Under the pieces are notes generated by a model. That model had not been told where the DNA came from. It searched no databases and saw only the letters and a program-made list of their open reading frames with translations. From Parvibaculaceae bacterium (lineage in GTDB: Bacteria; Pseudomonadota; Alphaproteobacteria; RS24), in assembly GCA_965227805.1 (NCBI GenBank), contig CBDDGJ010000001.1:34249-98248 (forward strand): a stretch of 64,000 bases of DNA, given 5' to 3'. Made by a program: the position numbers and the translations under genes. Shown here piece by piece: positions 39,258-42,200 of the stretch; within the stretch, counting starts at the first letter, position 1; every line of letters begins with the position of its first letter.

Positions 39258-42200
39258 AAATTCTGCGCCAGACAAAAAGAAAAATATATTTCTGTTTTTT
39301 GGGCATGTTGCGAGTAACATTGGTGATCTTGCCATTAATACGGGCGAATTAGAGCTTCTTCAGGCCGCCCATCCTAACGCTAGCATTACAGTCGTATTTT
39401 TTGGCGATAATGCGAATTACATTCATAATTCTATTGCATCCTGTGGTTCAAAATTAGATCACATATTCATATTTAAGCCATCGCTTGAAAAAGCACTTAA
39501 ATATCTGGCTGATCCGGTTGAATTTTTGGTGCATACAGGCGCAAAAAATGCTGACCTTATTTGTGTGGCATCGGGTGAATATTACTTCTCCTACAAAGAT
39601 AATCCAAATGATGAAATTCTCTTTTGGCGCACCCTTCCCATTGTAGCGGCTAAAAAAAACAATCAAGACGTTATTATGCTGCCATCGACATTTGGGCCGT
39701 TTGAAACAGACGCATCCGCAAAAATGATGCGTTCTATTTTGTCGATCACAGATACCCATAGCGCGCGGGAAACGGAATCTCAAAAAGTTCTTGGAAAAGA
39801 AAAATTGACGGATCAAGCACATCTCATGCTTGATCCTGCGTTCTTTATTAATACGGCTAATCTTAAAACCTATAATGAGAACTGTCCGCAGGGTCATTTA
39901 GCGATATCCATGCGCTCAGAGACCACGGGCATGCGTCTTGCCAAAATAACCAAGAAAGCGGGTGGCAAAATTATTGTGGCTAACCAGCTCTCATATCAAT
40001 TTACATTGGATCTGTGCCAGAAATATTTGGCGTCAGAAGAAGATAATGTCGTTGTTTTATATATTCAAACAATTGCCGATAAAATACTTGGAGAAGCCGT
40101 TGCGTCGAAAATTGCAGAAACATACAATAAAGCGCGTATAAAACTGATAAGGCCGAATACGGTCGACGAATATTTATCCTATCTCGCACGCGCTAACTTT
40201 GTTGTTGCGTCACGATTCCATGCCATCATCCTTTCACTTATTTTGGGTAAGCCGGTTTTTGGTACAGCATTTGATGTACATGGGCATAAAATGCCGGGTT
40301 TGTTTGATATGCTTAAGATAAAGCCATGGTATTCTGAATTAACAACCAATACGGTTATGGCAACAGTTGAAAAGGCGCTTAAGAAGATTTTATCTTCTGA
40401 TCAATTCCCCAAAACGGTGTTTGAAAAAATAGAGTCTGAAAAAGAGGTAACACGTAAATGGCTGGTTGAAATGAAATCTAGCCAGTATAATCAGAATAAA
40501 ATAATTGAAATCGGTGAATTGTTTTCGAATGCTTATATGCCCTACTTCATGAAGAAAATCCAAGCAGTAGTTATTTCTTTAAAAAAAGAAGTAGCACTTC
40601 AAAAAGACGAAATTAATAAACTTGAAAAAGTGAGCGCGGATCAAAAACTCAAAAATTCTTTAGTTACTTCTTTAAAAAAAGAAGTAGCACTTCAAAAAGA
40701 CGAAATTAATAAACTTGAAAAAGTGAACGCGGATCAAAAACTCAAAAATTCTTTAGTTACTTCTTTAAAAAAAGAAGTAGCACTTCAAAAAGACGAAATT
40801 AATAAACTTGAAAAAGTGAACGCGGATCAAAAACTCAAAAATTCTTTGCTGAGAACAAACGTTAAAATTCTCAAAGGGTCGATTTCCTTTCGCGTGGGGC
40901 AGCAAATTGTCAAAGATGCGGGCCGACCGCTACACTGGACATTATTGCCCATAAAATTATTTAGAATATACAAGCAGCACCTCAAATATAGATCTTCAGC
41001 CAGCAAACCTGCCCCCAGAAATAAGAGTGCAGATAACGAAGCAAATTTTGAAAGATTAATTAGGCTCCTCAGCCCTAAAAAAATTACGCCCATCGAGACG
41101 ATCGATAAACGGGTTTGTTATGTTCTGCATAATTCTTTGCCCTATGCCTCCGGTGGTTACGCAACAAGAGCACATGGGCTTTCTAAAGGGCTTAAAGCCG
41201 CTGGCTATGATGTTTTTGCTTTAACACGACCAGGATTTCCCGCCGATACTATTGAAATTGATATGGAAAACATCTCGGACCATGAGATTGATGGGATCAG
41301 ATATTTGCGCGATTTGAGCGTTTTCCGAAAAGGACAACAAGCGCATAATTATATGGAAAAAATCATCGATTCTTTTGAGGCGCGCTTTAGAGAAATAAAA
41401 CCAAGCATGGTTATTGCTGCTTCATTTCCATTGACCGCTATGCCCGCAATTATCGCGGCAAAGCGATTGGGTATACCGGTAATTTATGAGTTGCGAGGGC
41501 TTGAAGAGATTACCAAATTGTCCCGAGATAAGAACTATGCAGACAGCGAAGAGTTCTTTTTGAAAGTTAGGGTGGAAACTGCTACAGCGATTACGGCTGA
41601 CCATGTCTTCACCCTAACGTGTGCGATGCGCGAGGAACTCATCCAGCGTGGAGTTGATAATAGCAAAATAACGCTTCTCCCGAATTCATGCGATTCTGAT
41701 AATTTTATTCCGATTAGTCGCGATGCACGACTATCAGAAAGTTATAACATTCCGCATTATATGCCCGTTATTGGCTATATTGGTTCTATGGTATTTTATG
41801 AAGGCTTAGAAGATTTGATCGATGCCTGTGGTATTCTAAAAAAAGAAGGCCTAGAATTTAGATTGCTCATTGTAGGGAGTGAACACTCATCAATATCAAA
41901 TGTAGGGCCCATTACCCAAGCGATCCAAAAAGCTGCGGACAAAAACAATCTCAATGATTGGCTAATCATGCCGGGCCGTATTTCGCATGAAGAGGTGCAG
42001 AGCCATTATTCATTAATAGATATTGCACCATTTCCGCGGAAAGCCCTTCCCGTATGTGAAATGGTTTCTCCAATGAAACCCCTTGAAGCAATGGCTATGG
42101 AAAAAGCTGTTATTGTATCGAGTGTTAATGCACTCACAGAAATGGTTCAAGATGATGAAACCGGGCTTGTATTTGAAAAAGGAAACACAATCTCACTCGC

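Follow-up and report, generated by a model that had tools for sequence, protein, structure and literature searches.

A triplicated 93-bp unit in the predicted helical spacer of a putative pyruvyltransferase–GT4 glycan ruler

Can the gain or loss of whole tandem-repeat units within a glycan-synthesizing enzyme retune the length of the glycan that it makes? This question is raised by a gene in a 64,000-nucleotide stretch of DNA (hereafter the window) from a Parvibaculaceae bacterium (assembly GCA_965227805.1, contig CBDDGJ010000001.1, positions 34,249 to 98,248 of the forward strand; all coordinates below are those of the window unless a contig is named). The gene (39250..43017, plus strand; ATG at 39250, with an in-frame GTG at 39238) encodes a protein of 1255 residues (P0002), in which a polysaccharide pyruvyltransferase domain, a predicted helical spacer and a module of glycosyltransferase (GT) family 4 follow one another, and its spacer holds a near-perfect tandem triplication of a 93-bp unit. 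We find that the repeat is almost certainly real and recent, and that it is probably a case in which a “molecular ruler” of a known kind has changed length in nature.

The triplicated unit and its history

Tandem Repeats Finder reports the array at 40568-40847 with a period of 93, 3.0 copies, 98% matches, no indels and a score of 546. A direct comparison gives identity at 184 of 186 positions at period 93 within 40569-40847; where the gene flanks the array, the figure is 26-29%. Both results agree with a first-pass annotation of this DNA, made by a model from the sequence, which had described three head-to-tail units starting at 40576, 40669 and 40762 with a single G/A difference: in that codon-aligned phase, two full units differ solely by G/A at 40634 (AGC, Ser vs. 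AAC, Asn), and the third matches for 86 nt and then diverges. A phase starting at 40569, 40662 and 40755 gives three full copies on the plus strand (unit 1, 40569..40661; unit 2, 40662..40754; unit 3, 40755..40847) and brings in a second difference, T/C at 40574 (ATT, Ile vs. ACT, Thr). Units 2 and 3 are identical, and both variants single out unit 1, which has T (Ile) at 40574 and G (Ser) at 40634. The array is in frame and spans residues 441-533 counted from the ATG; its units encode SLKKEVALQKDEINKLEKV(S/N)ADQKLKNSLVT, and our translation agrees with the earlier one.

The array is one of 13 in the 2.1-Mb genome with a period of at least 27, at least 2 copies and at least 90% match. Across that genome the 93-bp unit is found solely in this array, and we therefore rejected an origin of the unit as a dispersed repeat or from a mobile element. 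A function encoded on the opposite strand was also dropped, as only a trivial open reading frame of 88 aa overlaps the array end.

The age of the array is set by its closest orthologue. This protein (P0003) is encoded on metagenome contigs L016 and L017 with the same synteny, and a protein of equal length and 99.9% identity to P0003 (P0035) comes from a third assembly. The one-unit allele is thus represented in three independent metagenome assemblies; it is 90% identical in DNA to the window gene, its spacer is exactly 186 nt (2 × 93) shorter, and it holds a single unit. The comparison of repeat number in orthologues, which the first-pass annotation had proposed, accordingly reveals a difference in copy number (3 vs. 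1), and the same result bears out the recent duplication claimed there: the triplication is specific to this lineage and arose later than the 10% divergence that separates the two alleles. The window protein is the single member, on one contig, of its cluster at 90% identity.

The two variants also give the order of events. Given that the single unit of the orthologue carries AAC, matching units 2 and 3, Asn is the ancestral residue, and the Ser of unit 1 arose after the first duplication. The two differences per 93 bp between units 1 and 2, together with none between units 2 and 3, suggest two successive duplications. We propose that the array would have formed by one duplication, then two substitutions, both non-synonymous, and then a further duplication in which the downstream copy was doubled. 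The likely mechanism would be slippage during replication or else unequal recombination, and the same process could add or remove further units. That slippage or unequal exchange would insert and delete 93-bp units, and hence that the change would be reversible, is plausible from the instability of tandem repeats in general. As for the RecA-dependent route that had been suggested for this array, recA was found in the genome.

The next relative (P0004, on contig L015; 85% DNA identity) carries a different repeat in the same place, a 42-nt unit, EINKLKKLSADQER, which encodes 14 aa and is present in about 4 copies.

The host enzyme and its spacer across the family

Profile searches and structure prediction assign the protein a sequence of five segments (residue numbers from Pfam and NCBIfam start at the GTG at 39238, those from structure models at the ATG at 39250). 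The polysaccharide pyruvyltransferase domain (PS_pyruv_trans, PF04230; 39316..40263, plus strand; residues 27-342) scores 107.5 bits against a cut-off of 25.3 and keeps every family-invariant residue; it is the putative capping module. The predicted helical spacer (residues 415-543; 40492..40878, plus strand), a putative coiled-coil ruler, holds the three units, and is followed by a family-conserved, basic amphipathic motif, ISFRVGQQIVKDAGRPLHWTLLPIKLFRIYKQHLKYR, consisting of two short helices (40882..40992, plus strand). The putative polymerase is the GT4 module (Glyco_trans_4_4 plus Glycos_transf_1; 41110..42303, plus strand; residues approximately 625-1022), in which GT4 families score 69-90 bits and a TIGR04063-like match reaches 260 bits, below the cut-off of that model. 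At the C-terminus lies a domain resembling class I S-adenosylmethionine-dependent methyltransferases (42544..42852, plus strand; residues 1103-1205), with a weak match to Methyltransf_23 (23.4 bits; cut-off, 27); the orthologues keep this domain. Relatives have one or two GT4 modules after the helix.

An AlphaFold2 monomer model of residues 1-640, based on an alignment of 25 sequences, has a mean predicted local distance difference test score (pLDDT) of 84. Its N-terminal domain is confidently modelled with a GT-B-like fold, and the top PDB matches of that domain are UDP-GlcNAc 2-epimerases and GT9 enzymes, as expected for the fold class. Two helices follow, at residues 415-460 and 465-543 (pLDDT, 74-89), the second of which is 79 residues long and spans most of the repeat; short helices at residues 545-557 and 560-581 cover the motif S-x-S-F-R-x-G...R-P-x-H-W-x-L-L-P-x-K-L, and the chain is then predicted to be disordered up to GT4. 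The model predicts that the repeat segment, which the first-pass annotation had called a coiled-coil spacer, forms a long helix between the putative capping domain and GT4. No other part of residues 380-640 has as high a hydrophobic moment as the conserved motif, which is basic; to judge from its sequence, the motif would fit a membrane-proximal anchor, or a docking or interaction site.

The spacer is where members of this family differ in length. Among 29 homologues, the distance from the end of the pyruvyltransferase domain to the start of GT4 ranges from 218 to 1331 aa, and 8 of the 29 contain independent tandem repeats in the spacer, with periods of 14, 22, 28, 31, 33, 35 and 65 aa. In pairs of proteins that are at least 85% identical, all indels of at least 7 aa fall within the spacer and correspond to whole repeat units; the catalytic domains contain merely 1-2-aa indels. 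The unit varies from case to case: a 65-aa unit is present in 2 vs. 3 copies in Legionella septentrionalis proteins of 99.8% identity; a 39-aa unit in 1, 2 and 3 copies in P0007, P0008 and P0040 (95-100% identity); the heptad AEQQ(R/K)QA in 1, 2 and 4 copies in P0059, P0024 and P0064 (>99% identity); and a 14-aa unit differs by one duplication between P0006 and P0039 (100% identity). The gain and loss of units that had been postulated for the window array is thus found in the wider family, which gains or loses whole units between 99-100% identical proteins, and in this spacer only. Lineages that lack spacer repeats show constant length.

The L. septentrionalis difference involves three proteins (P0023, P0055 and P0056; locus L041, km711, 9845-14482), in which two strains have 2 copies of the 65-aa (195-bp) unit and one has 3; it is possible that this difference is an assembly collapse. 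The short-unit cases fit within single reads, and assembly error is therefore an unlikely cause of them. In the next relative of the window gene, a further 24-nt repeat encoding SKPVLRDT (L015 11546-11639; nt 1666-1759 of the P0004 gene) lies in the disordered segment between the motif and GT4, and is present in 3 vs. 4 copies in the otherwise 100% identical proteins P0004 and P0037; the location of this copy difference indicates that repeat dynamics reach beyond the helix.

The unit sizes are not evenly distributed. Of the 8 unit sizes that occur independently in close pairs, 4 are divisible by 7 (7, 7, 14 and 14), where about 1 in 7 would be expected, and several relatives use units of 7, 14, 28 or 35 aa. 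From sequence, this excess suggests a constraint of coiled-coil periodicity in much of the family; the 31-aa unit of the window is an exception to the pattern.

A putative ruler and the alternatives

Four known systems bear on what the spacer might do. WbbB (Klebsiella pneumoniae O12/Raoultella terrigena) and ORF6 of K. pneumoniae O7 have the same order on one chain, i.e. a terminator, a helical spacer and one or more GT modules, and in K. pneumoniae O7 neighbouring genes supply further GTs, as they do here (PMC11231755). Compared to WbbB and ORF6, the window enzyme has a pyruvyltransferase as its putative terminator, where they have a 3-deoxy-D-manno-oct-2-ulosonic acid (Kdo) transferase or methyltransferase-kinase; its GT belongs to GT4 rather than GT2, and it has an extra C-terminal methyltransferase; moreover, the locus has no Wzm/Wzt, the spacer is built from a non-heptad 31-aa repeat, and the functions given for the enzyme are predicted ones.

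WbdD (Escherichia coli O9a/K. pneumoniae O3 and O5) resembles the predicted layout of the window enzyme in having a capping domain on a helical rod, followed by an amphipathic membrane-proximal segment, and the length of its coiled-coil rod has been shown experimentally to set the modal length of O-antigen chains (PMC5082667; PMC11231755). It differs in that its polymerase, WbdA, is a separate protein that it recruits; the caps that it adds are methyl or phospho-methyl groups; and it forms a trimer with a rod of ~20 nm and works with a Wzt partner that carries a carbohydrate-binding module. A kinase-like fold is predicted here on a separate membrane protein, P0032, which is described below.

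FutA and FutB of Helicobacter pylori share with the window enzyme in-frame tandem repeats that encode a helical stalk (predicted here) next to amphipathic helices, and their copy number varies naturally, in connection with the size of the glycan made or modified (PMC2583950). They have 2-17 copies of a unit of one heptad (21 bp), and these vary in a single population, whereas the window enzyme has 3 copies of a unit of 31 aa (93 bp), and the variation seen is between orthologues; FutA and FutB decorate the O chain, whereas the enzyme here is a putative polymerase and terminator.

WbbZ of K. pneumoniae O1b is, like the head domain of the window enzyme, a pyruvyltransferase; it acts at the non-reducing end, and the terminal pyruvate that it adds can halt O1 polymerization in vitro (PMC10629545). 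WbbZ differs in being a stand-alone protein that has no coiled coil and does not set chain length (PMC11231755). Pyruvate-based rulers have been proposed, and candidate pyruvate terminators, not yet validated, have been named from Burkholderia vietnamiensis and from Pseudomonas protegens (PMC10629545); we liken these to the window enzyme by description.

Glycan-ruler stalks with variable repeats are known from FutA/FutB, and coiled-coil rulers that have terminators are well established. What distinguishes the window enzyme is a set of features: a pyruvyltransferase head, GT4, a non-heptad unit, no linked exporter of the ATP-binding cassette (ABC) type and a predicted kinase-like membrane partner. 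A limited literature search, which is weak evidence of absence, found no report that the number of repeats in a terminator-polymerase ruler varies in nature.

By analogy with WbbB and WbdD, we propose that the pyruvyltransferase would serve as a chain-capping module and GT4 as a chain-extending module on one polypeptide, and that the spacer would keep the capping domain a constant distance away from the membrane-proximal polymerase. If the spacer is longer, chains would accordingly reach a greater modal length before they are capped. The additional 62 residues relative to the one-unit orthologue would amount to ~9 nm if they form a continuous coiled coil at ~0.15 nm per residue, and the predicted helical stretch would grow from roughly 10 to 19 nm. 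Four parts of this proposal are what we infer here: coiled-coil oligomerization, pyruvate capping, a ruler function and an effect on glycan length. We consider it somewhat likely that the array extends a functional ruler and thereby alters the length of the chains.

Observations of three kinds weigh against this proposal. The first concerns the coiled coil. The first-pass annotation had pointed out that 31 residues are not a multiple of the heptad, and indeed the frame shifts with each unit (31 mod 7 = 3): a heptad scan of the units finds moderate a/d occupancy, with the best frame moving by 3 for every 31 residues (4 → 1 → 5 over the three units), and the heptad frame is interrupted at every junction. 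The heptad signal within the units is itself weak, with about half of the a/d positions hydrophobic, and over the 93 residues the periodicity of hydrophobic positions has equal peaks at 3.44 and 3.875 residues, not at 3.5. The monomer model breaks at residues 461-464, and an extended rod and a helical hairpin are indistinguishable in it. The second kind concerns constancy: a nine-member cluster (P0022; all 1086 aa) and the one-unit orthologue, in its three assemblies, are without length variation. The third concerns the known systems. The terminal pyruvate of K. pneumoniae O1 is not what sets chain length (PMC11231755). No Wzm/Wzt or other ABC nucleotide-binding domain was found in the glycan island that contains the gene or in the orthologous contigs, by a search for the ABC ATPase signature that took in the Wzt-type YSSGM; the sole wzm-wzt pair of the genome lies on another contig, beside methyltransferase and GT genes of its own; and among 13 pyruvyltransferase-bearing loci from other named genomes, an ABC ATPase lies within 10 kb in 2.

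Compared with an ancestor that had one unit, the array adds a net 62 residues, or 6 mod 7. In a parallel homo-oligomer, where all chains carry the identical insertion, the expected outcome would be local over- or under-winding and an altered azimuth of the head domains, with no mismatch between chains.

The foremost alternative is that the spacer has expanded neutrally: the helix would be a tolerant tether or oligomerization element in which duplications are harmless, and copy number would have no effect on the product. We regard this as possible, if clearly on the unlikely side. It would account for the spacer being the sole poorly conserved part of the protein and for the spread in inter-domain distance across the family; it accommodates the non-heptad unit sizes (31, 39 and 65 aa) and the 8-aa repeat that varies in the disordered segment as well; both inter-copy substitutions are non-synonymous, with no sign of constraint; and the K. 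pneumoniae O1 precedent, in which terminal pyruvate is not a length determinant, points the same way (PMC11231755). Set against it are the proportion of multiples of 7 among independent unit sizes of close pairs (half, vs. ~1 in 7 expected), which suggests a coiled-coil periodicity constraint; a domain order that is that of validated rulers, namely terminator, helix, amphipathic motif and GT modules (PMC11231755); and the finding that engineered insertions and deletions in the coiled coil of WbdD alter chain length (PMC5082667). If the spacer is merely a tolerant tether, the array is an ordinary recent duplication.

It is also conceivable, although improbable, that the array is a high-frequency contingency locus, the copy number of which switches often and produces a mixed population within one culture. 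The precedent is H. pylori, in which the heptad repeats of FutA and FutB vary within one host and after passage, and their number correlates with O-antigen size (PMC2583950); in addition, recA is present in the genome, and a C(11) tract lies upstream of wecB in the island. However, the array has merely three copies of a long (93-bp) unit, there has been time enough for two substitutions between the copies, and the one-unit allele is equal in length in three independent assemblies. Tandem repeats of ~100 bp in E. coli rearrange at ~1e-5 to 1e-4 per generation, far below the rates of short-repeat switches. Unlike simple-sequence contingency loci, which have units of 1-9 bp in many copies and turn expression on or off through frameshifts or promoters, the array has a 93-bp unit that is a multiple of 3, in three copies, within coding sequence; as the unit is in frame within the coding region, a change in copy number would alter length, not expression.

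The weakest alternative, which we judge highly improbable, is that the true copy number is other than three because the array was expanded or collapsed during assembly. Units 2 and 3 share 179 bp without a difference, which short reads are not always able to resolve (the same caveat applies to the 195-bp-unit difference between the L. septentrionalis assemblies). However, the 2.1-Mb genome, which has many insertion sequence (IS) copies, is assembled into 4 contigs that contain no N, and the assembly resolves tandem arrays of 554 bp (81 × 6.8), 460 bp (130 × 3.5) and 630 bp (315 × 2), which argues against a collapsed or expanded 93-bp array and suggests that long reads were used. Moreover, the two variants mark copy 1, and the junction from A-variant to C-variant requires at least 2 successive downstream-type units; three units would therefore be the minimum that fits the sequence. 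The short-unit polymorphisms of the relatives (21 and 42 bp) fit inside single reads. Contig 2 of the same assembly (G000; 15,144 bp) has a 315-bp × 2.0 array at 64-694 and a 202-bp × 2.0 array at 14751-15144; these terminal arrays may mark an assembly edge or a repeat-rich element.

The reading that we prefer, i.e. a natural length change in a ruler, matters for the following reasons. Coiled-coil rulers are the accepted means of length control for ABC-transporter-dependent O-antigens, and the evidence for them comes from engineered variants of WbdD and WbbB; pyruvate-capping rulers have so far solely been predicted. The 31-aa unit (1 vs. 3 copies) and the 39-aa (1/2/3), heptad (1/2/4) and 65-aa (2 vs. 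3) units provide natural alleles that differ by spacer units alone. This allelic series lets one ask if the chains made by a pyruvyltransferase-GT4 system take their length from the rod, and it bears on the tolerance of non-heptad insertions as well as on repeat-tuned surface-glycan length outside H. pylori, including in free-living marine bacteria.

The glycan island, its membrane protein and neighbouring loci

The gene lies in a glycan island, whose other genes are wecB (36806-37963) and wecC (38007-39257; together 36806..39257, plus strand), which supply the precursor UDP-N-acetylmannosamine/N-acetylmannosaminuronic acid (UDP-ManNAc/ManNAcA) and have the same synteny in the orthologous contig L017; the gene of a 560-aa membrane protein (P0032; 43024..44706, plus strand); an AsnB-like/C5-epimerase fusion; and two GT4 genes. 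The GC content of the island is 34-41%, vs. 45-49% around it, and IS3-family transposase genes and a truncated phage-type integrase bracket it (33182-36414 and 49803-51147). The enzyme gene is absent from a genome of the same genus and from 39 other relatives, which is consistent with horizontal acquisition of the island. An uninterrupted run of 11 C (36556-36566), which lies upstream of the entire glycan operon, in the interval from the end of the IS to wecB, is a possible slipped-strand expression switch.

P0032 has no sequence match in Pfam, NCBIfam or the PDB. A profile search finds 296 relatives of 560-600 aa, and none of 10 sampled has a Pfam match. Members of the family identified with its hidden Markov model adjoin pyruvyltransferase-GT4 genes in Aliihoeflea, Oceanospirillum and Halomonas (L018), and related GT4 genes in another Halomonas locus (L050) and in Pseudomonas (L023); the family, as yet uncharacterized, thus recurs beside pyruvyltransferase-GT4 enzymes in distantly related Proteobacteria. 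The structure model of P0032 (mean pLDDT, 83) has long helices at the N-terminus, predicted to be transmembrane, and a C-terminal domain that resembles choline kinases and aminoglycoside phosphotransferases: in a fold comparison, its top PDB matches are choline/ethanolamine kinases and aminoglycoside phosphotransferases (E ~1e-7), and the canonical kinase catalytic motif is not obviously retained. To judge from the model, P0032 may tether the enzyme or act together with it, which would make it a candidate membrane partner. A bolder reading, which we hold to be rather unlikely, is that the enzyme and the P0032 family (~580 aa) together form a machine for polymerization, capping and length control without a dedicated Wzm/Wzt, the rod of which, and with it the chain length, would be retuned in nature by the gain and loss of whole units.

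The wzm-wzt locus of the genome (L014; G000 contig 3, 1-14000) contains two methyltransferase genes, the gene of a 1523-aa GT/FkbM-methyltransferase protein, and nucleotide-sugar genes; its Wzt has a weak match to the carbohydrate-binding module Wzt_C (28-31 bits). This is probably a resident O-antigen-type locus that is unlinked to the island, and it is possible that the enzyme uses this contig-3 exporter in trans.

Two further observations concern the window beyond the island. The closest named relatives of the GatB encoded at 31515-32990 are metagenome-assembled genomes of Parvibaculales, Rhodobiaceae and the PS1 clade, at 80-82% identity; these matches identify the host as an alphaproteobacterium of marine origin with a small genome, and not as a pathogen. 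A second in-frame array (53185-53419; 66 bp × 3.5, 92% match) lies in a minus-strand gene (52195-54063) for a PPC/Por_Secre_tail-like protein.

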